A stretch of DNA of 64,000 bases from an uncultured Pseudomonadales bacterium (GCA_964491115.1 CAZBEW010000003.1:23026-87025), one strand, 5' to 3'; counted from the first letter of the stretch, positions 29,853 through 62,330 are shown. Notes: generated by a model from the letters alone, not told the origin. Numbers and translations are program-made.

Positions 29853-29857
29853 ATTTT

Positions 29858-29903
29858 TTTGCTAAATACTAATAAACTTGATATAATAAAAGTAGAAAAG
29901 TAT
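29858..29903 (+). promoter_or_regulatory. Candidate promoter (TTGCTA ... TATAAT) and AAAGGAG ribosome-binding site for pilin paralog 6
   Basis: TATAAT at about 29883-29888; TTGCTA 19 nt upstream (spacing slightly long); AAAGGAG at 29897-29903. Confidence 0.25.
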
Positions 29904-29916
29904 AAAAGGAGAAATT

Positions 29917-30321: not shown

Positions 30322-30331
30322 ATAAATCACT

Positions 30332-30378
30332 ATCCCCTCTCTTTTCATGAAAACTTGGAATGAGAGGGGATTATTGTT
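30332..30378 (+). terminator. Hairpin (ATCCCCTCTC ... GAGAGGGGAT) followed by a T-rich run
   Basis: 10-bp perfect inverted repeat at 30332-30341 / 30362-30371 after the paralog-6 stop, then 'tattgttat'. Confidence 0.4.
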
Positions 30379-30390
30379 ATAATTAATATC

Positions 30391-30801
30391 ATGAATAGAG
30401 CAATCTCCCTATTTCCCATTGTTAAACAGGTCCAGGCCCAGACTAAAGAGTGGCAAACTATTAGTGAATACTGTGTTATTAATGATGTCGCTACCGTCCA
30501 AGGTGTGGGTTGTTTATTAGCTAATGTTTTGTCAGTTGCCCTGCGCTTACTTGGAATTACCGGCTTTATCATGATTGTTTATGCAGCTTTTAACCTATTG
30601 ATGTCGGCAGGAAATAGTCAAAAAATGGAAGAATCAAAAAAGACCATCACTTTTGCAATTATTGGAATTATTTTAGCTTTATCAGCCTTTATTATTATTA
30701 ATTTAATTGCAAATTTCACTGGAGTTAGTCTGGTGAAGGAATTTACCATCCCCAGTTCAGAAAAAAATTGGGTTTCACCTACGCCCACTCCCATTCCCTA
30801 A
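30391..30801 (+). CDS. VirB2/TrbC-like pilin (paralog 7, divergent)
   Basis: 'NLLMSAGNSQKMEESKKTITFAIIGIILALSAF' motif; true start uncertain. Confidence 0.5.
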   Translation: MNRAISLFPIVKQVQAQTKEWQTISEYCVINDVATVQGVGCLLANVLSVALRLLGITGFIMIVYAAFNLLMSAGNSQKMEESKKTITFAIIGIILALSAFIIINLIANFTGVSLVKEFTIPSSEKNWVSPTPTPIP

Positions 30802-44963: not shown

Positions 44964-47216
44964 TTATTCTGAGCCTTTGTAGTCGTCAATAGAGTAGCCG
45001 TATAGCTGTCTGGTTTTTGGTTGAGCTTCTTGTTCAAGCTCTTGAGTGTTGTCAAAATTATTGTTTAAATCGCTGTTTTGGCTACTTGCTGTCTCGTTTT
45101 GAATGTTTGTTTCTTCGTTTTGTCCACTCGCCACCTCATTTTCAGCAACTGTTTGTTGTTTTTGTTCAGCATCAAAAATATTTTTGATTTGCGGTAGAGT
45201 GTTGCTTTGACGTAATCTGATTTCTGCTTGACGCTCGGCATTTTCTAGTAAATCAGTCTCTATTTTAACCTTTTCTCCTTGCCAGGGAATTTTTTCAGGT
45301 CTGCTAAATTCTCCAACTTTTTCCTCGCTTTTCTCAATCGTGCTTTCTTGTTCTAGTCGACGACGTCTAAGCTCACGCTCTGCCTCAGCCTGTTTCTTTT
45401 TGGCTAAAATTTCTTCAGGATCTGTTGTGATTGCTCTATCTTCTTTTTCTGACGCAATAACTCGTAGTGCCACGTGATTTTGGCCAGCAAAAAAGATGCC
45501 TTCGCCAACATCTGAAGTCACCAACAGCTGTCTTTCTCCCTCAGACAAATAAAAAGTTTGCGCTAAAAGAGGAATCGAGGAGGTTGATTGCTTCATTAGA
45601 AACTGAATAGAAGAGTTAGAAACGATTGCTCGCCCATAATCGTTGCGCAAAAAGTCTTCAACGTCTTGAGTAATGGTGGTAATACCAAGGAAATATTTAC
45701 GAGCGCGTTTAACCATCGAATATACAAAAGCAGAGCTATCTTGATGCATCATGAAGTACCAGGCTTCATCAATCACTAAAATTCGTTTTTTAAGATCTTT
45801 TTTCACTTTTGTCCAAATGAAATCAAGAATCACGTACATGGCAATTGGTCGCATTTCTTCTTCCATTTCTCTGACGCTAAAAACAGTGAAGGGGGAGCGA
45901 ATGTCAATGTTTGAAGCTTTATCAAAAATTCCCCGAAAAGACCCCGTAATAAATTTTTCTAAACGTGCTGACAAATCATCGCTTTCATCTTGTTCCATGC
46001 CGACTAAGGCCTTGTATAGGTCTTCCATTAGGGGTGGAGTATTAGTTTGAGTGTTGGGATCGGGAGTAATGCCCTTGGCTTTATAGCTGGCAATGATTGC
46101 TCGATCAAGAATTGCTTCTTGTTGAGGAGTCATTTCTCCCAACATCACTTTTAGCAGACCATGCAAGGACAAAATCTTTTGACCAAGCTCATTTTCTCCC
46201 TCTTCGTACAAATTAGATAGGTCAAATGGATTAATTTTTGCCTTAGAACCAAAAGTAAAATTAATATATTCTCCGCCAACCATATTACATAGCTCTTCAT
46301 ATTCATGTTCTGGATCTAGCACGATAATTTCCGTGTCAAACATGAGCTGGCGCAAAATTTCTAGTTTTACTGTGTAGGATTTTCCTGCACCAGATTTAGC
46401 AAAAATAACCATGTTGGCATTTTCCATTTTAAAACGATCAAAAATTACCAAAGAATCGTTGTGTTCGTTGATGCCATAAACAATGCCAGTTTCCATGGTT
46501 AATTCTGAGGAAGTAAAGGGAAAGGTTGTGGCTAACGAAGTGGTGTCCATGTTTCTAGTGATTAACAGGCGATCGGTGCCCATTGGCAAGGTGTTTTTGA
46601 AGCCCTCATCCATTTGTAAAGCGGTTTTTTTTGAAACAATTAATAAAGAGCCTAAAGAAGATTGAATGGCTTTGGTGATTTTGTCTAATTGCTCTCTAGT
46701 TTCGCTTTTAATAGTGACGTATAAGCTAAATTGGAAAAATCTTTCCGAGCCAGCCGCCAGTTGCTCTCGCATGACTCGCGCGTCATTTAATTTAATTTCA
46801 GTGTTAATATTACTAATTTTACCGTTGCGGAGATCTGAGGTTATTTCTGCCTCCATTTCAGTGATTTTTCTTTTCAAATCATCTAAAATTTTGCTGGTGT
46901 CAGACGGAAAAACAAACATCGAAATATTAGCTTGAGTGGGAAAATTAATTAGCGGTGACAACCAGTTGGCTGGGACAGTACGCGGATAACCAGCCACAAA
47001 AATAGTTCTTGTATATGTTGAATTAATTTTTTGATAGGTGAAATCCACCTCTATTGCTTCTGGGGCAATAATATCTTGAATAGTCACTAGACCACGAGAA
47101 AAATCTTTCAATCTTTCTTGAGTATATTGCTCTGCATCAATCTTTTTTTTCTCAACAGGATCAGTGACTGTTTCTTTCTTTTTAAAAAATGGTAGGTTTA
47201 GGTTTAGTAATGACAT
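44964..47216 (-). CDS. VirB4/TrbE/CagE-family T4SS ATPase with a 130-aa acidic/Gln-rich C-terminal tail
   Basis: Walker A 'AKSGAGKSYTVK', Walker B 'ILVIDEAWYF'; N-terminal 'GYPRTVPANWLSPL' VirB4 N-domain. Confidence 0.8.
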   Translation of the reverse strand: MSLLNLNLPFFKKKETVTDPVEKKKIDAEQYTQERLKDFSRGLVTIQDIIAPEAIEVDFTYQKINSTYTRTIFVAGYPRTVPANWLSPLINFPTQANISMFVFPSDTSKILDDLKRKITEMEAEITSDLRNGKISNINTEIKLNDARVMREQLAAGSERFFQFSLYVTIKSETREQLDKITKAIQSSLGSLLIVSKKTALQMDEGFKNTLPMGTDRLLITRNMDTTSLATTFPFTSSELTMETGIVYGINEHNDSLVIFDRFKMENANMVIFAKSGAGKSYTVKLEILRQLMFDTEIIVLDPEHEYEELCNMVGGEYINFTFGSKAKINPFDLSNLYEEGENELGQKILSLHGLLKVMLGEMTPQQEAILDRAIIASYKAKGITPDPNTQTNTPPLMEDLYKALVGMEQDESDDLSARLEKFITGSFRGIFDKASNIDIRSPFTVFSVREMEEEMRPIAMYVILDFIWTKVKKDLKKRILVIDEAWYFMMHQDSSAFVYSMVKRARKYFLGITTITQDVEDFLRNDYGRAIVSNSSIQFLMKQSTSSIPLLAQTFYLSEGERQLLVTSDVGEGIFFAGQNHVALRVIASEKEDRAITTDPEEILAKKKQAEAERELRRRRLEQESTIEKSEEKVGEFSRPEKIPWQGEKVKIETDLLENAERQAEIRLRQSNTLPQIKNIFDAEQKQQTVAENEVASGQNEETNIQNETASSQNSDLNNNFDNTQELEQEAQPKTRQLYGYSIDDYKGSE

Positions 47217-48329
47217 TTAAAGTTCTACAGGTGCAGGTGAGTTATTTGCTTTCTTGCTAATTGTTGTTGGGTTGGGGTTTGCTTCTTCTCCATAATCGAG
47301 GTGTTTCTGAACGGCAGGTGCCTGTCCTGTATCTCGAATCATGGGATTTTGCTGATTAATTTGTGTTTGAAGTGAGGGAATTTCTTCTCTAAAGCTAGAG
47401 GAGGAGCTTGTTTGCCAATGGGGGGCTACCGGACTTGTTGGTCTAGTGGCGGGAGCAATTTCCTCTTGCTTGGGTCTTGGCACTGGCGACTCAACTTTTT
47501 CTTGTCTGCGCTCTGATGCTGGCGCTTTGATTTCTTCTTGGTCAGGCGCTGTAGTTGCTGTTGTCGCATCGTCATCTCTTAACGCCCCACTTTCTGTATA
47601 GAGTGTTTGGCGGAAATTCTGGCGTATTCGTTGTGGATCTTGTTCTTCAGCAAGGCTGGCTCTCACGATTGGTGTAGTGTAACTGTCGCTATTAGCCACC
47701 TCCTGACCCTCCGTGGACTCTGGATTGTAATTGACGTAAAAATTTTGAATGATTTCTTGAGTGTCTAGTTGTCTGGCAAATAAGCCCACTCGGTTGAATT
47801 GGGCAATGAGATGATCTCTTCTTGGATCGAGAATAGCGCTAGCTTTTTCAACTAAAACGGTTTTTTCGTGGTTGTTAATATCAAACTTGGTTTTACCGGG
47901 TAAGACACTTTCTGCGGTGTATAAACCCATTTCAGCTGCGTTAGTAGGTACAACAACAAAAAACTTTTTTTCTAAAACATTGCGCTCGTAGATTAAGTTG
48001 GCTACAAATTCTCTATATTCAGCAATTAATTGAGACTTAGCTCTTGATTTACTTTCCTTAATTTGATTGTCTAACAATCTTAAATAGCGACTAGCATCCT
48101 TGACGTTCGACTGAATATTAATTTGAATTGGAAAATTTAAAGAATTAAGCAACGCTCCATAAGTGTACATGATGGCGTCTTGTTCTTGTTCCGCCAAGAG
48201 ACTAAAGTTCATGGTGCCAATTTGCATAATTATTGACACCACGCCATCTTTAAGAATCACCATATCATTGGTGATGTCATAAACATCTAGAAATTCCTGC
48301 GTGGTAGAGTTGATACTGTTGTCACTCAT
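47217..48329 (-). CDS. Hypothetical T4SS-associated protein (globular N-domain plus Pro/Thr/Glu-rich tail); abuts the VirB4 start
   Basis: Position only; no recognisable motif. Confidence 0.35.
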   Translation of the reverse strand: MSDNSINSTTQEFLDVYDITNDMVILKDGVVSIIMQIGTMNFSLLAEQEQDAIMYTYGALLNSLNFPIQINIQSNVKDASRYLRLLDNQIKESKSRAKSQLIAEYREFVANLIYERNVLEKKFFVVVPTNAAEMGLYTAESVLPGKTKFDINNHEKTVLVEKASAILDPRRDHLIAQFNRVGLFARQLDTQEIIQNFYVNYNPESTEGQEVANSDSYTTPIVRASLAEEQDPQRIRQNFRQTLYTESGALRDDDATTATTAPDQEEIKAPASERRQEKVESPVPRPKQEEIAPATRPTSPVAPHWQTSSSSSFREEIPSLQTQINQQNPMIRDTGQAPAVQKHLDYGEEANPNPTTISKKANNSPAPVEL

Positions 48330-48380: not shown

Positions 48381-49397
48381 CTAATTAGCAATAATTTTAA
48401 TTTCTGGTACTATCCTTCCGGTTAATCTAATAGAGATGGGGTCAAAGTTTAAATCCTTTGCTTCGGTTTTAATGAGGTATTCGCCGTTAGGAAGGGCAGT
48501 TTTAATGGCAAATTCACCCTCAATGTTGCTTTTGCTAATGCGTAAAGCCTGGTCGTCATTGCTGGCAAAAACTTCAATTAAGGCATTGCTTACTGGCTCG
48601 TTTTCTTGATTAAAAACAAGACCAAACAGTTGGTTTGCTAACATGCTCTCTCTTTCCGACTGCTTTTCTTCATCAGCTTGATCTTCTTTGTTGGTATTTT
48701 TTAGAGGGTAGTTTTCTTGGACCTTTTTTGCCTCGGTTTTTTCCTGTATTTCTTGTTTAGCTGGCAATGGATCGCTTTCTTGGGCGTATTGTACTTGTTG
48801 TTGTTCCTGAATTTGCTCAAGGCTTTTAATTTTTCTCACTCTTGTTTTTAAATGAGGTTTGTCCACCCTAATATCTTTTTGAACAGAAATATTTTCTGCC
48901 TTAATTTCTACTTGACTAAAATTGGCCAGCAAATCTTCTGCTCTTTGATTGTAATGTAAATCCCATTGGTCAAGATCTTCGTTGGCACTAGGAACGCTTT
49001 TTAGATATTCTTGAACGCGCTGTTTTCTAGCTGGCGAGTAATTTACCTCTGGAGTAATATCTAAATTTTGATTTTGATCCGCTTGGTAGTTAAAAAAATC
49101 GGGGACCTTGGGTGCTTTTTTCCAAAAAAATTTAGTTGGTTTCCATATGTTTTTGAAAAAAGTTACGATCCAAAAATCTAAGGGTCTTTCTTCAACCGGA
49201 ACAAAAGCAATCATGACAGCCAAAATGATAATAAAAATAAACAGTGGCCACTTTACTATGGCAATTAAGTTACTTTTGAAAACAATAAAAGCAATGATAG
49301 CGCCAGCAGCCAATTCGCCAAACTGCTTTAGAGTCATGCTGCCGATTAGGTGAAACTTGTAGCCAGTTATATCTTGGGGAATAGAGTGTTGTATCAT
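48381..49397 (-). CDS. PrgI/VirB3-like two-TM protein fused to a C-terminal carboxypeptidase-regulatory-like beta-sandwich domain
   Basis: N-terminal 'SIPQDITGYKFHLIGSMTLKQFGELAAGAIIAFIVF ... PLDFWIVTFFKNIWKP' matches the PrgI-family pattern; C-terminal 'NALIEVFASNDDQALRISKSNIEGEFAIKTALPNGEYLIKTEAKDLNFDP'. Confidence 0.45.
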   Translation of the reverse strand: MIQHSIPQDITGYKFHLIGSMTLKQFGELAAGAIIAFIVFKSNLIAIVKWPLFIFIIILAVMIAFVPVEERPLDFWIVTFFKNIWKPTKFFWKKAPKVPDFFNYQADQNQNLDITPEVNYSPARKQRVQEYLKSVPSANEDLDQWDLHYNQRAEDLLANFSQVEIKAENISVQKDIRVDKPHLKTRVRKIKSLEQIQEQQQVQYAQESDPLPAKQEIQEKTEAKKVQENYPLKNTNKEDQADEEKQSERESMLANQLFGLVFNQENEPVSNALIEVFASNDDQALRISKSNIEGEFAIKTALPNGEYLIKTEAKDLNFDPISIRLTGRIVPEIKIIAN

Positions 49398-49822
49398 AGG
49401 GACAGCTTATTTGACTGATATTCAAAGCGACTACTGTCGATATCGCCAAATCCTTTTTCATTTAACCATATTTCGAGCGCTTTTTCTGTAGCATTTAGAC
49501 CCATGTCCGATTTGACAACAAAACCGCCGGTTTTATAAGAAAATTCGATGGTGAAATTTGACGTGCTTACTGGAGTGATGTTTTTTAATTCTGTGATCTG
49601 ACGATGTTGCTCGGTAACTTCTTCACTAAAATCTGGCTGGTCTGTGGGATAACCATGATCATGAATGTTTTTAATTTTTTCGAACTCTGGAGTGGGCGAC
49701 GCTTGTTGTGGCACGTTTCCTTCCTGACCACCTTGCTGAGTTACTCTTTGCAATACTATTATGGCAATTAGAATAAGTATTAATAAGATGATAATAAGCA
49801 GGGTTTTTTTCTTTTTTTTCAT
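49394..49822 (-). CDS. Small N-terminally anchored protein
   Basis: 'LLIIILLILILIAIIVL' TM; overlaps neighbouring genes by 4 nt (operon). Confidence 0.35.
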   Translation of the reverse strand: MKKKKKTLLIIILLILILIAIIVLQRVTQQGGQEGNVPQQASPTPEFEKIKNIHDHGYPTDQPDFSEEVTEQHRQITELKNITPVSTSNFTIEFSYKTGGFVVKSDMGLNATEKALEIWLNEKGFGDIDSSRFEYQSNKLSL

Positions 49823-49826: not shown

Positions 49827-52800
49827 TTAATTTACTATTAGCACAAGATTTTTAAATACTGTTTCAGACCCAACTTGGTGAACTACATTTTTTCCCCACC
49901 ACGGGTCGTAGGCAGTGACGGTGCCGGGGGTTTCAACACAAACAATAACGTAATAATGGCCAAAGCCTTTAGTGTCTGTGTGTGCTAGCAAAAGATTACC
50001 TTGTGCTAAATAATTACTAATTTCGTTAGTAATCTCAGTTGGAGAACCTGTTGGAGTTGCCACCCAGGTGGCAGTTACACCATTGCTGTTGAGAGTATCA
50101 ATTAAGTCACTAAGGTAACTACCAGCACATGTTGTTTTACCGCAACCTAGATAGCCCTCTCTAATAGACATTTGCTCAGGATCTTCATTTAAAATCATTG
50201 CGATGCTTGTTGGGCCACAAGCAACATCACCAAACCAACATCCACCGCAAATCCTAATATGACTCATGCTTTTCTGATCATAATAAGTTAGATTTCCCAC
50301 ATTTGTCCCATTACAATAAACGGTTTCTCCGCCACCGCCACCACCATCAGTGGGGAAATGGGTTAAAAAAGCACTATTTATTGTAGTTTGGTAAAAAAGA
50401 GTTCCGCCAGCTACCAAACCAAAGGCTGTGATAACAGCTTGGCCGGCAGTGGCCATAACGCCTTTGCCTAGAGCCGTTGCTGACGATAAACCGCCAGCAC
50501 TTAGCGCTTTAGCTCGAACACTAATTGGGCCTTGAGCTTCAGCACCCAAGGTGTCTGGTGCTGAGGCAGCTACGCCTTTTCCTCTTCCAAGCAGAGAGTT
50601 AATGATTGATGCGGAGGCGTTAGTAGCTTGTGAGAACAAACTATTTTGAGTTGAAACCGCACCCGCTCCTTTTGCTCCGCCACCCAAGCCAAAAAAATTA
50701 AGAGCCTTTATGGTTAAAGCTATTAAGGCGCCGAAAGCAGCCACTGTTGCAGCCAATATTAGTTTTAATAGAGGTTCTACTATTTTTCTAATTCTTCCCC
50801 AAGCCTCTTGCTCTATCATTTGCTTTATTGGCTCAGGTAGACTTTCAAAAGCACCGGCTGTGGCGTAATTAAGTCCAGCCCTAACAGCCTTTTGGCCAAC
50901 AAAATCCATCGCTTTATTACCAATATTTTTAACAGCGGTAAAACCATCTTGGAGACTATTCTCGATCCCTCCCTCATCATTTAATGATCTGTACAGCGGA
51001 TATTCATTGTTTTCATAATCTCCAAAAGCTTGATTGTAATTGATTGCGCCCAAGTCATAAGGGGAAAATTGTGTCAAAGTGTTGGCTTGTAGGACCATAT
51101 TGCCCGTGGTGTATTTTTCTCCAGGCAAATAATAATGTAAGGTAACAATTTGTGCTTGAGGACCAGAATCATTAATTACGTCCAAAAAGCTTTGCCGATA
51201 CACTGTTGTTAGCTTGTTTAAGTTGTCAATTTCCTCGCTACTAAAGCGAGAAAAGTCTATTTGATCTTGAGAGAAACCAGCTATTTTTTTGCTAACAACC
51301 TCCGCATCAATGAGGTTATAACTTGCTTGGTGTTTTATTTGTTGAAAATAAATGTTTTGTTTTTGTAAAATTTGTTTATCTTTTTTTGAAAGATTTTTAC
51401 GAGCTTTATCTTTTGAATCAAACTTGCTTGGTTCAACACTGTCGAACTCATCCCAGATTTGTTCAAGATCTTCTGGAGTGTAAATTTCATTATCAATACC
51501 CTGGTGAATGTTATGACTCCATTCAGCCCGCTGCGTTTTCCAGTAACAAGTGAGCAGGTCTTTAATAACACGCTCATTGGCAACAAAAGTGTTCTCTCCA
51601 ATAATATCTCGGCCAAAATGTGCTTGAAATCGTGTCCAATTAAGATTTTCTATATATTCAACCGGATAATTTTGTTGAATAAATACATCGATAACTGGCA
51701 AAATGTTGTCTTCAACCAAGAAAGCTTTATCAACAGCGCTTTTATCATTAGCAATAATTTTGGTCCATTCACCTAAAAAATTGTTTTTGGTAACTCTGGT
51801 AAAACTGGCACCGATATTTGCTAAAAAGTCTTGATTAAGGTCTTTTTTTTCATCAATTGCGGCAAAAAACGCTTCAGCCTCTTCAGTGGATAATTCTTCC
51901 AACTGTTCTTTTAAATCTTCAGGAACATTTTCGCCATTAACACTGAATTTTGCATCAAGTAGTTTTTGTCTAAATTTTTGTTCCTCGTTTGCGATTAACT
52001 GCTTTTTTAGCTCTAAAGGATCTTGCCCACTCTGAGTTAATCGACCAAGTTCTCGGGCAAATATTTCGCCACCCCTAATATCGGTCATGACTTTCAGAGC
52101 AACTTCTTTAGAGAAGCTGATGCGCATCGACGGAGTGCTAATTAATTTTTCTAAATTATATTGACCACCTATTAGCAAGCTTTCAATTTTAGAAAAAGTA
52201 ATACCCAATAATTGTTGTCTACTTTCTAAAGATAGTTGATTAAAGTTGGGAATTTGTTCAAAGCCCATGTTCATTAGTTGCTCTTTAGTTAAATTAGCAA
52301 ATTGAAAAATTAGGGCTTGGTTAACTGAAACAATAGCCAAAGAGCGAATATACAGTTTCGAATTGTCGTCAAGACGAGCCAAGTTAAATTCTTTAGAAAA
52401 ATTTTCTGGTAGTCTTTGTTGATGGTCTTCTTCGGCACCACCAGTGTCTGATTCATCTTCTGCTTGGGTTTCTGTTGATTTACTAAGCAGGCCAGGCGCT
52501 GTCGCTGGGGCTTTACTTTCTTCTTGGTCTGGTTCCTTTTCTGGCTCTTTATCTTCTACTTTTTCTTCTTCAGCAATGATGTCCAAGAGTGTTTGGCCAA
52601 TCTCGTTGCTAATCTTTTGCCAATAATCAGAACTATCTTCAAGTTTTTTTAATTCTGACAAAGCTATCTGGTCAGTACTTATTTTTGATGCTAAGCCTAT
52701 TCGCCTAAAATAATCGTTGCCGAGTTTAGCCAAAGTCTGTTTGTTATTTTGCTTAAGATATTTGGAGAGTGGAAGCGTGCTTTGCTCAAGAAAAGCTAAT

Positions 52801-53153
52801 ACATCACTGGCAAATATATTGTTTTCTAAGATTTCGTTTTCTTGTTTTTTTAATTTGTCAATTTCTTTTTCTTTTTCTTCTGGAGGAAGCGATTGATCTT
52901 GACCAACTCTAGCTATAAGAGCGAGATACTTTTCAACCTCATCACTTTTTATTAATTTAAAAGTTTTCCCAGCAAAACCCCGGACTGAAAAGGGCAGATT
53001 AAAACTCTTCTTAAATTGTTGGGGCAAATCTTGATCAAAAAAATCAGCACAAAAGGTAATAATTTCTTTTAATTCCGCTAGCTCAAGACTATCTTGACTA
53101 GCAAGCTCTTTTAGAGGAATTAAAAACCTATCGCTATTAGTTCGATCCGCCAT
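49827..53153 (-). CDS. 1108-aa membrane protein: about 780-aa N-domain, TM/Gly-Ala-rich segment, C-terminal papain-fold C39-like cysteine peptidase domain (candidate T4SS cell-wall hydrolase, VirB1/PrgK analogue)
   Basis: 'ACGPTSIAMILNE' (catalytic Cys context of Peptidase_C39_2) and 'GHYYVIVCVETPGTVTAYDPWWG' (His/Asp); 'LLKLILAATVAAFGALIALTIKAL' TM; poly-Gly 'TDGGGGGGE'. Confidence 0.5.
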   Translation of the reverse strand: MADRTNSDRFLIPLKELASQDSLELAELKEIITFCADFFDQDLPQQFKKSFNLPFSVRGFAGKTFKLIKSDEVEKYLALIARVGQDQSLPPEEKEKEIDKLKKQENEILENNIFASDVLAFLEQSTLPLSKYLKQNNKQTLAKLGNDYFRRIGLASKISTDQIALSELKKLEDSSDYWQKISNEIGQTLLDIIAEEEKVEDKEPEKEPDQEESKAPATAPGLLSKSTETQAEDESDTGGAEEDHQQRLPENFSKEFNLARLDDNSKLYIRSLAIVSVNQALIFQFANLTKEQLMNMGFEQIPNFNQLSLESRQQLLGITFSKIESLLIGGQYNLEKLISTPSMRISFSKEVALKVMTDIRGGEIFARELGRLTQSGQDPLELKKQLIANEEQKFRQKLLDAKFSVNGENVPEDLKEQLEELSTEEAEAFFAAIDEKKDLNQDFLANIGASFTRVTKNNFLGEWTKIIANDKSAVDKAFLVEDNILPVIDVFIQQNYPVEYIENLNWTRFQAHFGRDIIGENTFVANERVIKDLLTCYWKTQRAEWSHNIHQGIDNEIYTPEDLEQIWDEFDSVEPSKFDSKDKARKNLSKKDKQILQKQNIYFQQIKHQASYNLIDAEVVSKKIAGFSQDQIDFSRFSSEEIDNLNKLTTVYRQSFLDVINDSGPQAQIVTLHYYLPGEKYTTGNMVLQANTLTQFSPYDLGAINYNQAFGDYENNEYPLYRSLNDEGGIENSLQDGFTAVKNIGNKAMDFVGQKAVRAGLNYATAGAFESLPEPIKQMIEQEAWGRIRKIVEPLLKLILAATVAAFGALIALTIKALNFFGLGGGAKGAGAVSTQNSLFSQATNASASIINSLLGRGKGVAASAPDTLGAEAQGPISVRAKALSAGGLSSATALGKGVMATAGQAVITAFGLVAGGTLFYQTTINSAFLTHFPTDGGGGGGETVYCNGTNVGNLTYYDQKSMSHIRICGGCWFGDVACGPTSIAMILNEDPEQMSIREGYLGCGKTTCAGSYLSDLIDTLNSNGVTATWVATPTGSPTEITNEISNYLAQGNLLLAHTDTKGFGHYYVIVCVETPGTVTAYDPWWGKNVVHQVGSETVFKNLVLIVN

Positions 53154-53223
53154 GACTTTATTATAGACAGAAATTTAATGCGTGACTAGGCAAAAAAATT
53201 GAAAAATAGTATAATAACTAATT

Positions 53224-55815
53224 ATGAGCGCAAATCCAAATATTGTTGGAGGCTTTTCTCCAGAGCGGGGCTTTTTTAACCAAGCGGACACTGGGATGGG
53301 TGGTGGTGCAGGTAGTGGCAAGGATGATGAGCCAGTTGCTAAAAATCCTGATCAAGAGTCCGGTCAGGAACCCACTGATAAAAAACCAGATATTGCGAGT
53401 CAATTAAGCGTTAATTTAGGCCAAATTGAATCTTTCATTCGTGGCAAGGAGCCTAAGCCTGGTCAGGCTAGAGATTTGGTGAAAGAATCTCTGAAACTAA
53501 TAGAGGACTACGAACCAAGCTCTGAGGATGAAAAGGCCGACATACTTTTCTTTATTGATAAGTTAATATTGAGGGCAAAAGCTCTTTACCCACCCGAATT
53601 GAAGACAGAAGCTATTAACCTTAAATCAAAATTAGAAGTTTCTTACTATGGTGAAGAAAGTATAAAGAAATCAAATGTGAGTTCAGCAAAACAAGATAAG
53701 CTGAGTCCTTCTAAAATTAAAGAAAGCGATTCTGAAGGTGATGAACAAAGTGAAGATGATCGAATTGAAGACCTTACTCAGTTACTGATGAATTTTGATG
53801 ACGAGTTAAAAATTCTAGAAGACCAGTCTTTTGTTTTTGCAGATGATCGAGATTGGGTGAGCGAATCTTTTGAAGAGATAAATGGCCATCTTGCCACATT
53901 GAAAGGATCAAATAATGTTGATAAGGAAGTAATAAAAACTAAAGAGATTTTGTTGTTGCAACTTGAGTATAAAAAAAGAAGAGAGGCGATGTTTAAAACA
54001 CTCACCGAAATGGAAGGGAGTCAGTCGTTAACTGAAGGTTTTTTTGCTAGAGCTATTGAGGGTCCGGGTTTGACTAGAATGAATAATATTGTGTCTAGAT
54101 TAAAACTGTTAGCGGGTGGGGCAGAAAACATAAAGTATCAAGAAGATTTAGAAAAAATCAACAAGCATTATTTGGCAAGGAAGTGGTTGCTTCTTACTTG
54201 GTTGTATGTTAATCCTAAGATATATGAGGGTTCGGGTGCAGAGGGAGCAAGAACCTCTTTTGGACAAGTTGGTGACAATCAATTTCCAATTAAGGGTAAA
54301 GACTTCCAGGAACTTATACTTGGCGGATTAGATTTTAACCCTGAGTTTGGAGGTTTGTTGAATCAGAAACTAGGTGTTGAGTCAGTTCAGCTTGGCGAAA
54401 ATGAAAAGAAAGATATCGAGGTAACTTTATTTACCTTTTGTATGCGGGAGTTTGATAGAATCTACAAAGATAAAGATGGGACGGGTAGTACTGATCCTGA
54501 AGATAAAAATAAAACTATTACTAAAATTACAACGCAAAACTTAAGAGAAAATAACGGCCCCCTAATTGATTATGTTTGGAAAAAGGCAAAACAATATAAG
54601 AAAGAACACGATGGCGATTTTGCTAATCAGACTGGAGTTGAAATAGACAAACATGCGGTTGACATGGCTTTTAGAACTCATTTAATTTTAACCATGCATC
54701 ATTGTCGTTATGCTAGTGGGAGTCCTAGTTTGAGAGATGATTGGTACTATGCCTTTAATTGGCCTAAATATGTTCTTAGTTATCGTGAAAAAGGAGTTGA
54801 TAAATTTGATTGGTTGGTTACGATGTTGCAGTTTGGACTCAGGCCTGGTTTTAATGGTGATCAAGTGTCTGATAAAAATCTTCTTGCTCTGTTATTTGAT
54901 GCTTCTGCGGTTCGAAAAGCTAAAAGAAAACTAGAAGCTAGAGGGATGTTAAATGAAGGAGACAGGGGTTTGAGGTCATTAAGGGGCTTAATAAATGGAT
55001 ATGCAATTAGCTTGCCAGATGTATCTCCTCAAGTAACTCAAGCGACTGAAGATGCTCCAGACTCCGATAAAAAACCAGATAAACAGCCAGAGTACTCGTT
55101 TCTCGCACCCCCACTTAGGTATCTAAGGCAAAAAGGCGAAGACGGAAAGTTTGTTACTCATCCTGCTCCTGAAGGATCAAATGGATTGCATGTTTTTTTG
55201 GATGAAATTAGAGATGAAAAAGGTGATTTGCTCTATGAGGAATTTAATTATGAACAACTGGGCAATGATTTAATGGATTATTACAACAATATGAATGCGC
55301 ACGGTATTGATAATTTTTTAAACAAATTTATAAAAACAGAGCGTTTTGAATTTATGGAAAACGCCACAAGTCCTAAGGTTTTAAAAAATTGGAAGAATGA
55401 GGCTAGATATTGCGCAACACTTCTGCCTAGGGTTGGAAAGTTTGCGCTAATGAATATGAAAGACTCTGGAGATCCAGTAAAACTAAACCCTAGTAGGTAT
55501 CCTACTGAAGAATCTAAAAAAGGAGCGCGGAAATCAAGTGTTGCTGAAGCGGTTATGGATAGAATTTTATACCAAATTGTTTTTATCAATTGTATGCTTC
55601 GTACCGATTATACTGTTGATGATAAATATTTTTGGTCAGACGTTGAGGTGAGAAAGTATTTATCCGATCTTAGTAGTGAACAAATTTTAACCACTCAAGA
55701 AGCTGATGCAATTTATGAAGTGGTTATTGCTTATCGCGGTCAAGTAAAAATATTTGTTGAGGGAGTTAGAAAAGAAACAGCCAAACAGATTGTGCACTCA
55801 AACCTTTTTAAGTAA
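53224..55815 (+). CDS. Hypothetical 863-aa soluble acidic protein, opposite strand inside the T4SS-like locus
   Basis: ORF only; N-terminal Gly-rich 'GMGGGAGSGKDDEP'. Confidence 0.35.
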   Translation: MSANPNIVGGFSPERGFFNQADTGMGGGAGSGKDDEPVAKNPDQESGQEPTDKKPDIASQLSVNLGQIESFIRGKEPKPGQARDLVKESLKLIEDYEPSSEDEKADILFFIDKLILRAKALYPPELKTEAINLKSKLEVSYYGEESIKKSNVSSAKQDKLSPSKIKESDSEGDEQSEDDRIEDLTQLLMNFDDELKILEDQSFVFADDRDWVSESFEEINGHLATLKGSNNVDKEVIKTKEILLLQLEYKKRREAMFKTLTEMEGSQSLTEGFFARAIEGPGLTRMNNIVSRLKLLAGGAENIKYQEDLEKINKHYLARKWLLLTWLYVNPKIYEGSGAEGARTSFGQVGDNQFPIKGKDFQELILGGLDFNPEFGGLLNQKLGVESVQLGENEKKDIEVTLFTFCMREFDRIYKDKDGTGSTDPEDKNKTITKITTQNLRENNGPLIDYVWKKAKQYKKEHDGDFANQTGVEIDKHAVDMAFRTHLILTMHHCRYASGSPSLRDDWYYAFNWPKYVLSYREKGVDKFDWLVTMLQFGLRPGFNGDQVSDKNLLALLFDASAVRKAKRKLEARGMLNEGDRGLRSLRGLINGYAISLPDVSPQVTQATEDAPDSDKKPDKQPEYSFLAPPLRYLRQKGEDGKFVTHPAPEGSNGLHVFLDEIRDEKGDLLYEEFNYEQLGNDLMDYYNNMNAHGIDNFLNKFIKTERFEFMENATSPKVLKNWKNEARYCATLLPRVGKFALMNMKDSGDPVKLNPSRYPTEESKKGARKSSVAEAVMDRILYQIVFINCMLRTDYTVDDKYFWSDVEVRKYLSDLSSEQILTTQEADAIYEVVIAYRGQVKIFVEGVRKETAKQIVHSNLFK

Positions 55816-56137: not shown

Positions 56138-56263
56138 GCGCTAATTTATTCGCCTACTACTTGATCTGCTACCTCTTTCCCTCCTGCAGTTTCTGGTATG
56201 GAACTAGGCATAACCTGTTCATTTGCTTCTGGACTTGTGCTCAATGCGTCTCTTATCGCTTCT
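56138..56263. repeat. Direct repeat copy B (3' end of the VirB6-like gene and its stop-proximal flank)
   Basis: See copy A. Confidence 0.8.
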
Positions 56264-57885
56264 TCTGCAGCACCTCCTCTTTGACTTGCTTGAGCTATTT
56301 CTTTAGCCTTTTTACGAGTTGCATATGCTTCTGTTGCTCTTGTGCTTAGTCCTTGTTGAGCCTGTTGAATACCCGTGTTAATAGTGCCTGTTACTAATTT
56401 GGGAACGTTAGCAATTACGGTTGGAGCTGCAACACCAAAAGCTCCACCCTTAATTGCTCCTTCACCAGCTGCTTTTAATCTATCTTGAAAAGACGCTCCT
56501 TCACCAGCTCTAGCAAAACCTACACCAGCTCCTGCCAAGCCACCAAGAGCCCCTGTTCCTGCCGACACTCCTGCTCCCACCATGAATTTACCTCCTTTAT
56601 TCCAACCTTCTTGCAACTGCTTCATTGCCGCTCCAGCTAAATTGCCCATGATTCCCTCTGATAGTCCCAACATTTTCTTTACCTCTTTCATAATTTCTGG
56701 AATTATTAGTAATATGCCGATACCTACTAAAACTGGAAAAACTGCACCTTGACCAGATCCTAGTAAATAGGGTGGCATAAATCCGCCCGATGAGCCACCT
56801 TCATAATAAGTAGAACTGGTTAACATTCTATTAACTAAAAGACATATTAGAATTATGGGCCACATAATTAAATTACCAGTCAAATTTTTTAACCAAGATA
56901 CAAAGGTGTTTTGGCCAGGAATAGCGCCAACCATTAAAATTACTGGAGCAAAGACTACTTGTAAAATAATTGAGACATATGATTTTAATAGCTCTAAAAA
57001 GATTTTAAAAACACTAAATAAGATTGCTAATCCTACAATCATTGATGCTGACAATGAAGAAAATAAGACTAAGGCATCTGCAACAAAACCTTCTCCTAAC
57101 AAGTTTTCCATCAAAGCTGTCACAGCTTGCCTAACGTCAGGCCCAAAGCTCCTAAACATGCTTCCCACTAAAGTAAAAATACTACCTGAAATTAAGTCTT
57201 GTTGACCATCAAACAGTGAAGTTAATAAGTATAACAAAAGATACATTATATCAATCATAAATCCGGCAATGGCATAGGAAAAGGTAACTGCTAATAGGGC
57301 AACAATGATGTTGGGAATGGCCTGTTGCACGGTAATGGCTACTTGGCCAATTTTAGCTCGAAACATAATCATAAAGCCAATCACTAAAAAAATGACCACA
57401 AAAAACAGATAAGCTATATTACGAAACTGCTTCCAGGTTTCAAGGATTGGATCTAATGAGGCAAAACCTAGGCCTTGTGCTTGTGCTTCTGGAATAATTT
57501 TAGCGTTTTGTAGTAAATCAGCTAAGTAAACTTGAGAATTAATGGGAGAATCATACATGGCCACAATACTACTATTAACTGTGCCAATTAGCCCTGAACC
57601 AACACTTTGTTGCAACATGGCGCTTTCGCTAGATTCACTCTCTGTAGTGCCGAGAACATGAAGATTAATCACGTTCATTAAGTTTGAAGTTGTTTCTGTA
57701 ACGTGTTTTTCTCCACTTACACCTTCTTGAGTAATGCTAGTCTGCATGTTTTCACTAGCTTCTTTTGAGCGAAATTGAGCTCTAATCCAATCCCAGACGT
57801 TGGCTTGAGCGGGTTTAACAGCCACTGACCACGCCATTAGAAAGGTTAAAGCAAAGACTAACAAACGAGAAGCAGATTTTCTCAT
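56146..57885 (-). CDS. VirB6/TrbL-like polytopic membrane protein with signal peptide and Gly-rich C-terminal region
   Basis: Signal peptide 'LLVFALTFLMAWSVAVKPAQA'; at least 6 TM; Gly-rich 'GAGVSAGTGALGGLAGAGVGFARAGEG' as in TrbL. Confidence 0.45.
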   Translation of the reverse strand: MRKSASRLLVFALTFLMAWSVAVKPAQANVWDWIRAQFRSKEASENMQTSITQEGVSGEKHVTETTSNLMNVINLHVLGTTESESSESAMLQQSVGSGLIGTVNSSIVAMYDSPINSQVYLADLLQNAKIIPEAQAQGLGFASLDPILETWKQFRNIAYLFFVVIFLVIGFMIMFRAKIGQVAITVQQAIPNIIVALLAVTFSYAIAGFMIDIMYLLLYLLTSLFDGQQDLISGSIFTLVGSMFRSFGPDVRQAVTALMENLLGEGFVADALVLFSSLSASMIVGLAILFSVFKIFLELLKSYVSIILQVVFAPVILMVGAIPGQNTFVSWLKNLTGNLIMWPIILICLLVNRMLTSSTYYEGGSSGGFMPPYLLGSGQGAVFPVLVGIGILLIIPEIMKEVKKMLGLSEGIMGNLAGAAMKQLQEGWNKGGKFMVGAGVSAGTGALGGLAGAGVGFARAGEGASFQDRLKAAGEGAIKGGAFGVAAPTVIANVPKLVTGTINTGIQQAQQGLSTRATEAYATRKKAKEIAQASQRGGAAEEAIRDALSTSPEANEQVMPSSIPETAGGKEVADQVVGE

Positions 57886-58890: not shown

Positions 58891-61719
58891 TTAATGACTG
58901 TTGTGCATAATTATTGCAGTTGTTAGCACACCCAATCGTTGGAAAAGTGGATACTTAGTGGTGTTATTGTTAGTAGTGTCTGGATTACAAGCCACGCCAC
59001 CCATAAAACAATTTGTTAGAGCGCTACTTACAAATTCTGCACTTGGTGATCTGCCCATTACAGCAGTGTAACGATCTATAATATCGTTGCTGTCGCTTGC
59101 TTGAGCTGCTCGATTACAGGTAAATTCAACCGCATCCATACAAAAAATTAGATCCATTTCTTGATGTTTGTCATCGAGCCAATTGGCAGGATAAATATGA
59201 TCATCTCCCTCAAGAGAAACGGGACAATAGCCAGCTGCTCGCCAACGAGTTGGTCGCTCTTGATTTAAAAAGCTGTCAAAAGTACAGTTGCCATTACCTC
59301 CGCCATTATATCTAGCTAAACCCATTAATAATTTTTCGTAATCAAGCTGAACTTGGTCTGGAGCTACACCCTCGATGCCCATTTTTCCTTTCAAATGCTC
59401 CATGGCTGCAGTAGCATCTTCCAAGAGGGTGCCACGTAAAGCACCGCCATCAAAAACTGATTGATTTGGATTCATGCCGCCTTCAATCCAGTGCACCCCA
59501 GCTACTATTTCACAAGGAATACCAGTATCAGCTTCAACTTGACCATATACTGACACTAGTTCTTCTGTAACTCTTGAAGAGACATAAGTTTCAAAATTGC
59601 TTTTAGCAACTTCTGGAATACCAGAAAATTCTGGCAAACCCTCAATTTTTTCAAATGCTAAACCCTCACAGGTGGCTTCTAACTCTCCTGGCATTCGCCC
59701 TCGACAGCGACCTAAAAATAAGTCCTCAACGCGTTCACAAGAAGCAATATATTTGTATGCTTCTTCGGTGGTGCTACGAATTGTGGTCTGAATTTTTCTA
59801 ATGAACCAGCCTAAACCAAAATCGGGGAAGAGAATGGGGTTTTCTGGTTTACCTGCCACAGTTACTCCAAATGTTTTTTCATCACAAATCTCAATGTAGA
59901 TGGGATTTCCTAATGGATCAACTGCGCCACTTGGATCTGGTTCTAGGCGACAATTAGTTTTCCAAGTATAGGCATCACTACTACTATAATTAACATTGCT
60001 ATTTTTTATGGTGTAATATTTTGGTATCGCTCCAGTTTTTCCCTCCATATCAACTACAACATTGTTTTTAACCAGCTCAAACAAAGTATCACGATTCCAA
60101 AAAATACTAAAAGCCTTGTTAACATCTTTTACATTTTCTCCCATTGGTAAAACGAGATAAGCGCGCACTTTGATTTTGTCATCATTATTCAAACTCAATC
60201 CAGGACTACTAACTGTAATATTCCAAGAGAAATTTGTTTCGGTCTTGCTTTCTAATCGATCTAATAATTTAGTATTCAGTGGGTTATTTTTATAAGGATT
60301 ACGGGCAGTGTCATCAAAATATTTAATTGCTGGAGTAAAAAGATCACCCGCTTTCTCAAAAGTAAGATCATTGGTGTTGATGATATCTTCAATGTGTAAA
60401 TCACTGTCCGGATCGTCTAATTCGACCACGCCAATTGCCTCAACATCACAAGAGGGCTCGGCGCCATTAATAATGTCAACTAAAACATTTTCAAGAACGT
60501 TATCCTGTGAGCGCTGACATTGAGGCATGCCAGCACATTTAATTGTTTTTTCATTTTCTGACCAAGAATTAGCTTCGATTGCAGCTTCGGCCAAGGATTC
60601 TCTTGCTAAGTTTTGATCAGCAAAATCTTGGACATTCAGGTCGTGACTTTGTAAAACAGCTTTGGTTAATTCTAGGCTATCAACATTGTCCAAAGTTCGA
60701 GATTTATTGGTGGCAAATTCGGGAATTTTAAAAGCAATGAAAATTGGAGCATCTTTATCGTGGATGCCGCCATTAGTTTGCAAAAATTGCAGCTGACCAT
60801 CGCTTGACGATTGTCTTGGAACTAAAACTAGGAAAGCCAAGCGATAAAGGTTGTCTAAATCGAAGTTAACTTTTTCAATAGCTGCTCGGCTAAGGGCTAG
60901 TGTTTCAGCATCAGCTGAGCTGGTAGTAGCGCCTTCTGGATATAAATCACCACAAATAGTCGAATTTTTTTCAGTTCTTTCTTCCTTAGATCCACTGCTC
61001 AATTCTGGACGGAGATCGTCTAAGCGTTTTTTAATGTTTAAATAGTCAAGATTGGCAGTAGGAATATTTAGTGCTGGATTGCCCTCAATTTTAACTTCTC
61101 TGTTTAAGAAACAATTAATAAAAAATTTACTGCACAATTCTTCAATCACGTCCAAATTGTTTTTCTTATAAAAACACTGCCAATAAGAACTTAATAATCT
61201 GCCAGCTACGCCGGTGGCATTTTCATAATCAAGTGCAGTAAAAGTTTTTTGTAAATTTGCGCCAAACATTCCCTCAAATGAATCATTTTTATCGGTTAAT
61301 TCGCCATCTTCCATCCCTCTTAAAAGAGGAATGCGCGCCTTGTCAAAATCTACATATTGAGGGCTGGTGCCACTAAAAAGTCTGGGTGAGTCGGGAAATT
61401 CAGCAAAATAATCGACAACATCTCCCCAAACACTGGCATCAATTAACCACTCTTTTTGAGCGCAATGAGCTTCATAACCCTGGTCTAAAACCATATTCGA
61501 TAAAAGATCGTCATGAGCACTACTAGCCATGCCTGGATTAAGCACCAGTGGTAATATGTTGTAGGTAGCGGGATCTCTTTTTTCAGGATTAAGATCAAAG
61601 GTTCCAGATGCAGTTGACTCTTGGGCAAAAACAGTAAAATTTGGCTTAGTAAATAAGTTTAACAATAAAAAAAACGTAAACAACAATTTGACAGCTTTTA
61701 GCACAACTTTATTATACAA
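58891..61719 (-). CDS. 942-aa secreted cysteine-rich protein; C-terminal region possibly lysozyme-like
   Basis: Signal peptide 'LLFTFFLLLNLFTKPNFTVFA'; more than 25 Cys; 'HWIEGGMNPNQSVFDGGALRGTLLED ... GLARYNGGGNG' weakly resembles the SLT/lysozyme E...AYNAG pattern. Confidence 0.4.
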   Translation of the reverse strand: MYNKVVLKAVKLLFTFFLLLNLFTKPNFTVFAQESTASGTFDLNPEKRDPATYNILPLVLNPGMASSAHDDLLSNMVLDQGYEAHCAQKEWLIDASVWGDVVDYFAEFPDSPRLFSGTSPQYVDFDKARIPLLRGMEDGELTDKNDSFEGMFGANLQKTFTALDYENATGVAGRLLSSYWQCFYKKNNLDVIEELCSKFFINCFLNREVKIEGNPALNIPTANLDYLNIKKRLDDLRPELSSGSKEERTEKNSTICGDLYPEGATTSSADAETLALSRAAIEKVNFDLDNLYRLAFLVLVPRQSSSDGQLQFLQTNGGIHDKDAPIFIAFKIPEFATNKSRTLDNVDSLELTKAVLQSHDLNVQDFADQNLARESLAEAAIEANSWSENEKTIKCAGMPQCQRSQDNVLENVLVDIINGAEPSCDVEAIGVVELDDPDSDLHIEDIINTNDLTFEKAGDLFTPAIKYFDDTARNPYKNNPLNTKLLDRLESKTETNFSWNITVSSPGLSLNNDDKIKVRAYLVLPMGENVKDVNKAFSIFWNRDTLFELVKNNVVVDMEGKTGAIPKYYTIKNSNVNYSSSDAYTWKTNCRLEPDPSGAVDPLGNPIYIEICDEKTFGVTVAGKPENPILFPDFGLGWFIRKIQTTIRSTTEEAYKYIASCERVEDLFLGRCRGRMPGELEATCEGLAFEKIEGLPEFSGIPEVAKSNFETYVSSRVTEELVSVYGQVEADTGIPCEIVAGVHWIEGGMNPNQSVFDGGALRGTLLEDATAAMEHLKGKMGIEGVAPDQVQLDYEKLLMGLARYNGGGNGNCTFDSFLNQERPTRWRAAGYCPVSLEGDDHIYPANWLDDKHQEMDLIFCMDAVEFTCNRAAQASDSNDIIDRYTAVMGRSPSAEFVSSALTNCFMGGVACNPDTTNNNTTKYPLFQRLGVLTTAIIMHNSH

Positions 61720-61748: not shown

Positions 61749-62330
61749 TTAAACTCCTAAAATTGCTATTCCAAAAACTACTTCGATTAATTGGATTATC
61801 CAGTAAGAAGCAAAAAGAATGATAAATCCGATAATAGCTGTAGTAATGATTTGTTTGCCTTCATCCATATTTTTGGAATTAGTAGCACCAGTGAGCATTT
61901 TAACACCAGCTAAAACTAACATGCCAAATAGAATCATCCCAGCTATAGGGAAAGCATATTTCAAAACTTCGCTAATAATTCCGCCTGGAGTTGATAATTT
62001 TTCAGCTTTAGTCGAAAAAAGTTTAAGTGGGTTGAGGTTGTCTAATAGCTCTTGATCTACTGGAGGAATGGGTACGGCTAGAGTGGGAGTAGCTGTTGGA
62101 GCAGCTGTTGGTGGTGGAGAAGCATGGCACCCCGTTGTAGAATCGTACCAGCCGCAACACCATATAGGAGGATTCCAACCAACGTGGACTTTATTTGCAC
62201 AATTACATGCACCATAGGCAAAATATTCTCCGCATTCAGCTGGATCAAGTAGTCCACCTTTTACTGGTTTGGCTGGAAAGGCAAATATTAGAGAAAAAGC
62301 AATTAATAAATAAAGGATTGTTTTTTTCAT
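61749..62330 (-). CDS. Pilin-fusion protein: signal peptide, 8-Cys ectodomain, Pro/Thr/Ala linker, C-terminal VirB2-like two-TM pilin module
   Basis: 'CGEYFAYGACNCANKVHVGWNPPIWCCGWYDSTTGCH'; 'PPPTAAPTATPTLAVP'; C-terminal 'GMILFGMLVLAGVKMLTGATNSKNMDEGKQIITTAIIGFIILFASYWII'. Confidence 0.5.
   Translation of the reverse strand: MKKTILYLLIAFSLIFAFPAKPVKGGLLDPAECGEYFAYGACNCANKVHVGWNPPIWCCGWYDSTTGCHASPPPTAAPTATPTLAVPIPPVDQELLDNLNPLKLFSTKAEKLSTPGGIISEVLKYAFPIAGMILFGMLVLAGVKMLTGATNSKNMDEGKQIITTAIIGFIILFASYWIIQLIEVVFGIAILGV

Follow-up and report, generated by a model that had tools for sequence, protein, structure and literature searches.

What does a giant membrane protein with a peptidase at its C-terminus do among the genes of a type IV secretion system (T4SS)? 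The question is raised by an open reading frame (ORF) on the minus strand of a 64,000-nucleotide stretch of DNA (GCA_964491115.1, CAZBEW010000003.1:23026-87025), which we call the window and whose positions we count from its first letter. A first-pass annotation had described the product as a giant membrane protein with a C39-like C-terminus inside a T4SS-like locus and had suggested, by analogy with PrgK and TraG of Gram-positive conjugation systems, that it remodels the cell wall. The ORF, all of the quoted motifs and the T4SS genes were found at the positions checked: 'CGPTSIAMIL' is aa 979-988 (nt 50190-50219) and 'GHYYVIVCVETPG...YDPWWG' is aa 1065-1087 (nt 49893-49961). On comparative grounds the gene is real and no chance ORF, since there are 14 full-length homologues in public data (52-100% identity) and the synteny is conserved in metagenome-assembled genomes (MAGs) of Patescibacteria; these MAGs are labelled Candidatus Woesebacteria, Paceibacterota or Pacebacteria, and all public copies are annotated 'hypothetical protein'. 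We lean, if only slightly, towards regarding the protein as a PrgK-like, VirB1-analogous wall hydrolase whose catalytic head can be exchanged and which has a partner dedicated to it. The gene and the features of its head are as follows.

49827..53153, minus strand: giant ORF, 1108 aa with an ATG start, encoding scaffold, membrane region and C39-like peptidase; first gene of the operon
49830..50327, minus strand: papain-fold cysteine peptidase domain, aa 943-1108, assigned to a divergent branch of the Peptidase_C39_2 lineage
50274-50276, minus strand: codon of predicted catalytic Gln960
50217-50219, minus strand: codon of predicted catalytic Cys979
49956-49958, minus strand: codon of predicted catalytic His1066
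49905-49907, minus strand: codon of predicted catalytic Asp1083

Scanned as a single sequence, the protein matched the Pfam family Peptidase_C39_2 (PF13529) at 15.0 bits (E 0.037), under the 24-bit gathering cutoff, over aa 975-1085 (positions 12-143 of the 143 in the profile). The same scan at E <= 1 gave no match to CHAP (PF05257) or NlpC_P60 (PF00877), both of which the first-pass annotation had put forward as models to check, nor to PF03412; an NCBIfam scan of the giant protein gave no match, and a single-sequence search of the PDB with the C-terminal domain returned chance-level matches alone. A family profile was therefore more informative. Built from the 14 homologues and searched against 1.84 billion representative proteins, it found 115 proteins, about 90 of which (P0034-P0128) match profile positions 955-1095 alone with E values of 3e-11 to 1e-3. 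When nine distant relatives were checked, eight of them (P0034-P0037, P0039, P0040, P0058 and P0091) passed the PF13529 cutoff at 24-39 bits, and some relatives carry a precomputed PF13529 annotation and the source name 'C39 family peptidase'. Gln960, Cys979, Gly980, His1066 and Asp1083 are invariant in the alignment of 91/91 distant relatives, and Gln960, Cys979, His1066 and Asp1083 also among the 14 close homologues. The head holds six conserved Cys besides the catalytic Cys979; Cys972 is kept in 83/91 distant relatives and Cys1009 in 86/91.

An AlphaFold model of aa 943-1108 had a predicted local distance difference test (pLDDT) score of 96.4 and a predicted template modelling (pTM) score of 0.91. 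Compared with the PDB by Foldseek, this model gave 37 matches at E <= 1e-3, the top 34 belonging to papain-fold peptidases or to proteins homologous to them (C39, C47, C70, C71 and phytochelatin-synthase-like), the other three being ubiquitin clippase. PeiR, the staphopains, the C39 domains of PCAT1/ComA and the StbD C39 toxin are among them, each with E ~1e-5 and a probability of 1.00, as are Alr0975 and AvrRpt2; PDB sequences searched with a profile of the head gave weak matches to the same papain-fold group. The domain assignment thus comes from the profile searches, the conservation of the catalytic residues and the structure model, not from a direct hidden Markov model (HMM) match. The head is apparently an active papain-fold cysteine peptidase of a divergent C39_2 branch, and by its sequence is best termed a divergent relative of Peptidase_C39_2, not a threshold member. 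The domain identity proposed at first pass therefore stands through the family profile, the invariant residues and the predicted fold, while the HMM scan proposed for it stayed sub-threshold. Fold and family leave the head's substrate unfixed.

Evidence on the substrate came from relatives in which the head is a different one. The family-profile search also returned at least 14 proteins of 1200-1320 aa (including P0017-P0028) that match profile positions ~100-940 alone. These keep the N-terminal domain, both hydrophobic segments and the 'AFLTxFP' motif, and carry at the C-terminus, replacing the C39-like domain, a Cys-rich region of ~300 aa ending in Peptidase_M23. A Peptidase_M23 match was present in six of the seven M23-type relatives scanned, above the cutoff in four of the seven and at up to 45.5 bits; the scaffold profile, searched against the PDB, matched the peptidoglycan endopeptidases ShyA, LytM, lysostaphin and DipM through its C-terminal columns. 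Both M23-type loci looked up have the gene in the equal operon slot, upstream of the PrgI-like, TraC-like, VirB4 and dnaA genes. P0058, a free-standing relative, joins a lysozyme-like SLT_3 domain to C39_2, and a catalogue of phage lysins counts Peptidase_C39_2 as a lytic domain (PMC8223927). The occurrence of M23 in place of the C39-like head is, as a comparison of sequences, the strongest argument for a cell-wall role.

If the head can be exchanged, what travels with it? The gene next to that of the giant protein, which the first-pass annotation had passed over, gives an answer.

49394..49822, minus strand: partner gene, 142 aa, with an MKKKKK N-terminus, one transmembrane anchor, a Pro-rich linker and a small C-terminal domain

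The gene begins 4 nt past the giant ORF, and its product belongs to a family of membrane-anchored proteins of 135-148 aa; no Pfam or PDB relative of it was found. A partner profile was searched against all ORFs of the window and of 17 fetched loci. The partner lies no more than ~25 nt downstream of each C39-like gene in 15/15 loci (~13 of them non-redundant; 10 with fused and 5 with free-standing peptidases); these include L011, a locus outside the profile-building set. The same search detected it in neither M23-type locus (0/2), where an unrelated 330-340-aa gene fills its slot. The products of this gene (L012 11608-12600 and L013 10399-11421) are N-anchored, share 37% identity and have no relation to the 142-aa protein; they may be an M23-specific counterpart of the partner or a VirB8-like subunit. 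Each of the four free-standing C39_2 genes looked up is followed by a gene of 142-148 aa, whose product is homologous to the window's partner (pairwise E 2e-8) and equal to it in length and layout. Across these loci the partner is seen to track the catalytic head, not the scaffold, which points to a direct functional coupling; it would be an inhibitor, regulator or positioning factor of the head. The next gene in three of the free-standing loci encodes a homologue of a 579-aa polytopic protein of the window (E 2e-30; L014 11521-13197); it stands two genes downstream of the free-standing C39_2 gene, in Roizmanbacteria-type loci with a T4SS_pilin gene nearby. Because of this homologue and the pilin gene, the cassette of peptidase and partner appears to be T4SS-associated in the free-standing loci too. 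Directly upstream of the free-standing cassette there is also a divergent, unusually long (1282-1431 aa) ClpB-like AAA+ protein (L014 5655-9950, L015 5950-9990, L016 6143-9991; Roizmanbacteria-type), with the T4SS_pilin gene just beyond.

A head-tracking partner is also what one would expect if the protein, made in the cytoplasm, were exported by the T4SS to a host as an effector or penetration protein, its hydrophobic pair inserting in the target membrane, its C39-like or M23 head attacking the host wall or host proteins, and the partner serving as an immunity factor that protects the producer. A conserved N-terminus, alternative heads and a small downstream gene that follows the head (15/15 vs 0/2) make up a polymorphic toxin-immunity layout, here seen on two head types and two M23 loci. 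The free-standing relatives with Sec-type N-terminal segments carry an equal partner, however, so that the pair is independent of T4SS export, and the partner's domain is predicted to be extracytoplasmic, whereas immunity to a delivered toxin is usually cytoplasmic. The absence of a signal peptide and the even number of hydrophobic segments fit an effector, as do the structural neighbours, which include the StbD C39 toxin and the papain-like toxin/immunity pair 9l5u (bioRxiv 10.64898/2026.05.07.723447); the T4SS of Patescibacteria, moreover, has no relaxase and is thought to export proteins (PMC10633639), and the top BFVD matches, weak and non-significant, are to phage lysins and tape-measure proteins that are long and similarly laid out. 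Yet each head type is deeply conserved inside its own clade (52-100% identity) and not hypervariable, the gene is single-copy and the first of a core operon, and no coupling protein or secretion signal was identified. We consider an effector fairly unlikely. That the protein is a payload or needle-tip, tape-measure-like, which would be pushed through the T4SS so that the hydrophobic pair enters the host membrane and the head opens the host wall, the partner giving self-protection, we judge unlikely; if true, it would be the device by which ultrasmall epibionts breach the host envelope.

The wall-hydrolase reading raises the question of which side of the membrane the head is on. Between the N-terminal domain and the head are the following features.

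50679..50771, minus strand: hydrophobic segment 1, aa 795-825, strongly hydrophobic
50463..50678, minus strand: low-complexity Ala/Ser/Gly/Gln loop, aa 826-897, free of Cys
50352..50462, minus strand: hydrophobic segment 2 (aa ~898-925) and 'AFLTxFP' motif, aa 898-934
50328..50345, minus strand: poly-Gly tract GGGGGG, aa 937-942, directly before the peptidase domain

The first-pass annotation had reported one transmembrane segment; hydropathy gives two, the second having been missed, and shows no N-terminal signal peptide in the giant protein. In C39-type proteins segment 1 has a core of 18-22 residues between Lys, and in M23-type proteins it has 28-33 residues with a central Pro; a hairpin is plausible for the M23-type and, given the 18-22 residues between Lys, not for the C39-type. 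Segment 2 is weakly hydrophobic, Gly/Ala/Thr-rich and nearly invariant in both scaffold types. A DUF5654 match (E 0.015) had made segment 2 a candidate for a pilin-like element; the candidate was dropped, a profile-profile comparison with seven pilins of the window giving 0.5% probability and the DUF5654 resemblance being matched by 1/18 family members.

Read literally, two spans would leave the peptidase in the cytoplasm, where it could act on cytoplasmic proteins or wall precursors or have a regulatory or assembly role at the T4SS base. The two segments and the missing signal peptide speak for this placement; the loop between them is short, low-complexity and Cys-free, and so compatible with an external loop, and among the structural neighbours Alr0975 (phytochelatin-synthase-like) and the PCAT peptidase domains work in the cytoplasm. 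The relatives point the other way: 76/91 of the free-standing ones have one N-terminal signal or anchor segment and are thus built for export, and the alternative M23 head is from a family of extracytoplasmic wall enzymes. Cys residues number 7 in the 166-aa head vs 2 in the 790-aa N-terminal domain, and 7-12 in heads vs 0-3 in N-terminal domains across the family; the non-catalytic ones are even in number in both Cys-rich head types, 6 in the C39-like and otherwise 10-12, suggesting disulfides. Finally, the N-terminus of the partner (MKKKKK followed by a transmembrane segment) predicts an outside-facing domain, which, with the 15/15 co-occurrence, argues for a head that works outside the membrane. 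A cytoplasmic head, which the first-pass annotation had regarded as incompatible with its proposal, is what the naive topology yields, and indirect arguments favour the outside instead; we hold the literal cytoplasmic placement to be very unlikely.

The poly-Gly tract, which the first-pass annotation had correctly placed ahead of the peptidase domain, bears on yet another possibility, namely that the head is a processing protease that cuts the VirB2-like pilins, another secreted substrate or, at the poly-Gly tract, the protein itself, releasing the peptidase. Among the nearest solved folds, the double-glycine leader peptidases PCAT1/ComA have the best root-mean-square deviation (rmsd; 2.5-3.1 A). 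C39 peptidases cleave behind a Gly-Gly pair, the C39 toxin StbD-CT processes itself and cleaves a Gly-Gly motif, and GGGGGG stands directly before the domain. Lysostaphin-type M23 enzymes, too, are Gly-Gly endopeptidases, and nine T4SS_pilin proteins of the window need maturation. The tract itself, however, behaves as a linker. It takes the form of G runs of 3-8 in the close family and was not found in the more distant fused members P0015 and P0016, in any M23-type member or in 88/91 free-standing relatives; this patchy presence weakens the case for a conserved autoprocessing site and, judged from the sequences, the tract is most likely a lineage-specific flexible linker. In the window's pilins the signal peptides are of the ordinary hydrophobic kind and double-glycine leaders are missing, the giant protein has neither a PF03412 match nor an ABC-transporter fusion, and we know of no precedent for M23 enzymes in pilin processing. 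A processing role seems to us quite unlikely.

The remainder of the giant protein is the large N-terminal domain. A model of aa 1-945 shows two confident modules and a low-confidence membrane region.

52554..53126, minus strand: module 1, aa 10-200, mixed alpha/beta (pLDDT 81-92)
52389..52553, minus strand: disordered acidic linker, aa 201-255, poorly conserved (pLDDT <50, variable columns)
50934..52388, minus strand: module 2, aa 256-740, all-alpha (pLDDT 73-94)

Within the scaffold, module 2 shows the highest conservation, and the M23-type relatives have it too. The domain had been described at first pass as large and of unknown function, and it stays without a relative by sequence or fold. 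Foldseek of its fold against the PDB gave no match (best E 2.3), comparison with BFVD nothing significant (best E 0.05, probability <= 0.2) and the PDB profile search nothing, the M23 matches being through C-terminal columns only; there was no relative in PHROGs and, by tblastn with the N-terminal domain as query, none on plasmids. A further word-indexed homology search with the scaffold alignment returned the close family alone, and tblastn with the whole giant protein found no relative in phages. Its position and the analogy with the intracellular domain of PrgK (PMC11323569) suggest that the ~790-aa domain is a cytoplasmic scaffold contacting the translocon.

That translocon is encoded in the same operon. 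On the minus strand the order is giant gene, 142-aa partner, PrgI/VirB3-like, 370-aa, VirB4-like, then dnaA, dnaN, rnpA, yidC and jag; counted in genes, the giant gene lies upstream of the PrgI-like one by two and of the VirB4-like one by four, with gaps or overlaps of 4 nt. The order is unchanged in relatives at 53% identity. The T4SS features of the window are as follows.

48381..49397, minus strand: PrgI/VirB3-like membrane protein with a C-terminal CarboxypepD_reg-like domain, overlapping the partner gene by 4 nt
47217..48329, minus strand: 370-aa protein, placed where related loci have the TraC-like (PF26593) gene
44964..47216, minus strand: VirB4-like ATPase directly upstream of dnaA (P-loop_TraG 90 bits, AAA_10, DUF87)
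56146..57885, minus strand: polytopic 579-aa membrane protein with multiple transmembrane segments and no Pfam match, VirB6-like candidate
27648-30801, plus strand: seven tandem small genes, 119-151 aa with 2-4 hydrophobic segments, T4SS_pilin (PF18895)
61749-62330, minus strand: larger pilin-domain protein, 193 aa, with a C-terminal T4SS_pilin domain
62334-63281, minus strand: larger pilin-domain protein, 315 aa, with a C-terminal T4SS_pilin domain

The window thus holds nine T4SS_pilin proteins. Six of the seven in the array are above the PF18895 cutoff and the seventh is sub-threshold; the array, ~14 kb away from the VirB4 operon, is similar to the arrays of VirB2-like pilins that have been reported in Patescibacteria. 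The 193- and 315-aa proteins have a signal peptide, are rich in Cys in the N-terminal region (6 and 10 Cys) and look like pilins to which an exposed domain has been added. Between their genes and that of the polytopic 579-aa protein sits a 942-aa protein (58891-61719, minus strand) with an N-terminal signal-like segment, 20 Cys and no Pfam match, possibly a surface or pilus-associated component. We also considered the giant protein itself as the VirB6 subunit, which is unlikely since the separate polytopic protein is present. The T4SS of Patescibacteria has been described as monoderm and MPF_FATA-like, near dnaA and with pilin arrays (PMC12102498), and as essential for epibiotic growth in the one lineage tested (PMC10633639); the gene set of the window and its proximity to dnaA agree with the published description. 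In most classes of Patescibacteria recognisable VirB1-type homologues are rarely virB4-linked, and the authors of that survey suggest that other enzymes fill the role (PMC12102498).

Upstream, the giant gene is divided by a 70-bp intergenic region from a divergent gene for an 863-aa protein (53224-55815, plus strand) without a family match, which also adjoins the giant gene in L001, a locus whose sequence is identical to the window. Back-to-back promoter-like sites lie in this gap. The best for the giant gene, TAGTCA-17-TATAAT (10/12, window 53154-53190), ends 6 nt before the ATG and would imply a leaderless or nearly leaderless mRNA; promoter-like sites around the giant gene are no commoner than in shuffled sequence.

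How does the protein compare with known systems? PrgK has an N-terminal domain inside the cell, a membrane-spanning helix (254-274) and extracellular LytM, SLT and CHAP domains (PMC11323569), and the known Gram-positive VirB1 homologues are all membrane-anchored with extracellular domains (PMC12857230). With PrgK (pCF10; a DELTA-class VirB1-like hydrolase), TraG (pIP501) and CwlT (ICEBs1) the giant protein shares an MPF_FATA-type operon beside VirB3-like and VirB4-like genes; an intracellular N-terminal domain, then a membrane anchor and then one or more catalytic domains, an orientation that is conjectural here; and a repertoire of a papain-clan cysteine peptidase (there CHAP or NlpC/P60) and M23/LytM, here the C39-like head with its M23 alternative. 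It differs from them in having no SLT or muramidase domain, a cysteine peptidase of the C39_2 lineage and not CHAP or NlpC/P60, an N-terminal domain threefold larger (790 vs ~253 aa) with no detectable similarity to anything, two hydrophobic segments and not one, a single head, C39-like or M23 by lineage and not both together, and a dedicated small partner gene. By this analogy the giant protein would be most like the PrgK/TraG-type VirB1 analogues in its working, and by sequence it falls outside that group.

The free-standing Peptidase_C39_2 (PF13529) proteins of Patescibacteria, for example of Candidatus Roizmanbacteria, have a homologous domain (E down to 3e-11) with identical Gln-Cys-His-Asp, the conserved Cys972 and Cys1009, the equal downstream partner and a neighbourhood with a T4SS_pilin gene and the 579-aa polytopic homologue. 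They measure 200-430 aa, have a signal or anchor at the N-terminus and contain a linker, whereas the window domain is fused to a 940-aa scaffold without a signal peptide; this domain is by itself below the Pfam cutoff (15 bits) and has the extra Cys947, Cys969, Cys1004 and Cys1072, with a short insertion around Cys1004 that is present in none of the 91. The C39 domains of PCAT/ComA and StbD-CT share with the head the papain fold with Gln/Cys/His/Asp (Foldseek probability 1.00, TM ~0.55, rmsd 2.5-3.1 A) and weak profile matches around its His-Asp region; identity is 14-19%, the head lacks a PF03412 match and is joined to neither an ABC transporter nor a CdiA-type delivery domain, neither the ORF nor the genes beside it encode an ABC domain, and the context is a T4SS operon. 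PeiR/PeiW (C71), the top Foldseek match (E 1.2e-5, TMq 0.56), has the papain fold and cuts a cell-wall peptide cross-link; at 17% identity it differs also in coming from a methanogen phage or provirus, in its substrate, pseudomurein, and in its other accessory domains.

These comparisons allow a working model. The protein would be a component of a monoderm-type (MPF_FATA-like) T4SS of a Patescibacteria bacterium of the Woesebacteria/'Paceibacterota' lineage. Its N-terminal domain, probably cytoplasmic, would dock on the VirB4/VirB3 translocon and be followed by the membrane-embedded region and the single C-terminal catalytic head, which would act outside the cytoplasmic membrane and cut peptide bonds of peptidoglycan, in the bacterium's own wall and perhaps in that of the host cell it attaches to as an epibiont. 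The local gap in the wall could then let through the secretion channel and the VirB2-like pili, while the small anchored protein would serve as dedicated partner of the head, either an inhibitor or a positioning factor. The outside position of the head, the peptidoglycan substrate and the roles of the N-terminal domain and the partner are what we infer from the comparisons above. Relative to the first-pass proposal, a PrgK/TraG-like wall role is strengthened, though not proven, by the M23 replacement, by the relative with SLT_3 and C39_2 and by the export segments in 76/91 relatives.

Several observations weigh against a wall hydrolase. Since the protein has two hydrophobic segments and lacks a signal peptide, its N-terminal domain and peptidase are formally on one side of the membrane, the cytoplasm; the positive-inside rule gives no consistent orientation, the loop being the most positive region in the C39-type (mean net charge +2.7 over that family) and the M23-type showing no signal. 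Cys density was tried as a marker of compartment and fails window-wide, at 0.82% in proteins with an N-terminal hydrophobic segment vs 0.70% in cytoplasmic ones. In the searchable literature no Peptidase_C39_2 protein is shown to have peptidoglycan-hydrolase activity, and the closest solved structures include enzymes that cleave proteins (double-glycine leader peptidases and a toxin cleaving GyrB/ParE). The Pfam scan of the giant protein gave no glycosidase domain, unlike PrgK, TraG and CwlT. As for the M23 head, two loci were sampled; HxH is kept in 12/12 M23-type relatives and the canonical HxxxD is intact in 3/12, so that the activity of this head is not certain and it may be regulatory, like the LytM domain of PrgK.

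Elsewhere in the window a few genes deserve mention. The first part (1-10000) has a lower G+C content (28-31% vs 34-40% elsewhere) and genes for an O-antigen-ligase-like protein, a 1039-aa beta-propeller protein, a glycosyltransferase and a pyridoxal phosphate (PLP) decarboxylase; it may be a surface-glycan island. A 437-aa ORF (12990-14303, plus strand) has 18 Cys (4.1%), two hydrophobic segments and no Pfam match, and a tRNA gene is next to it (14409-14482). An ATP-dependent DNA ligase of archaeal/eukaryotic type (20877-22709, minus strand) has its N, adenylation and C domains all present. The dnaA-dnaN-rnpA-yidC-jag cluster ends in an RNase H gene, just past which lies the gene for a 1030-aa protein (35970-39062, minus strand) with a DUF4012 domain and one hydrophobic segment.

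Our literature search returned no paper linking C39 peptidases to the T4SS of Patescibacteria. The locus is a testable wall-hydrolase candidate for the Woesebacteria/'Paceibacterota' clade, a core-operon scaffold with either a C39-like or an M23 head. If the wall-hydrolase reading is right, it would tie the mostly uncharacterised Peptidase_C39_2 family to the biogenesis of a secretion system, would define a new two-gene cassette of a peptidase and a small anchored partner, and would flag a 790-aa domain without detectable relatives as a part of the T4SS.

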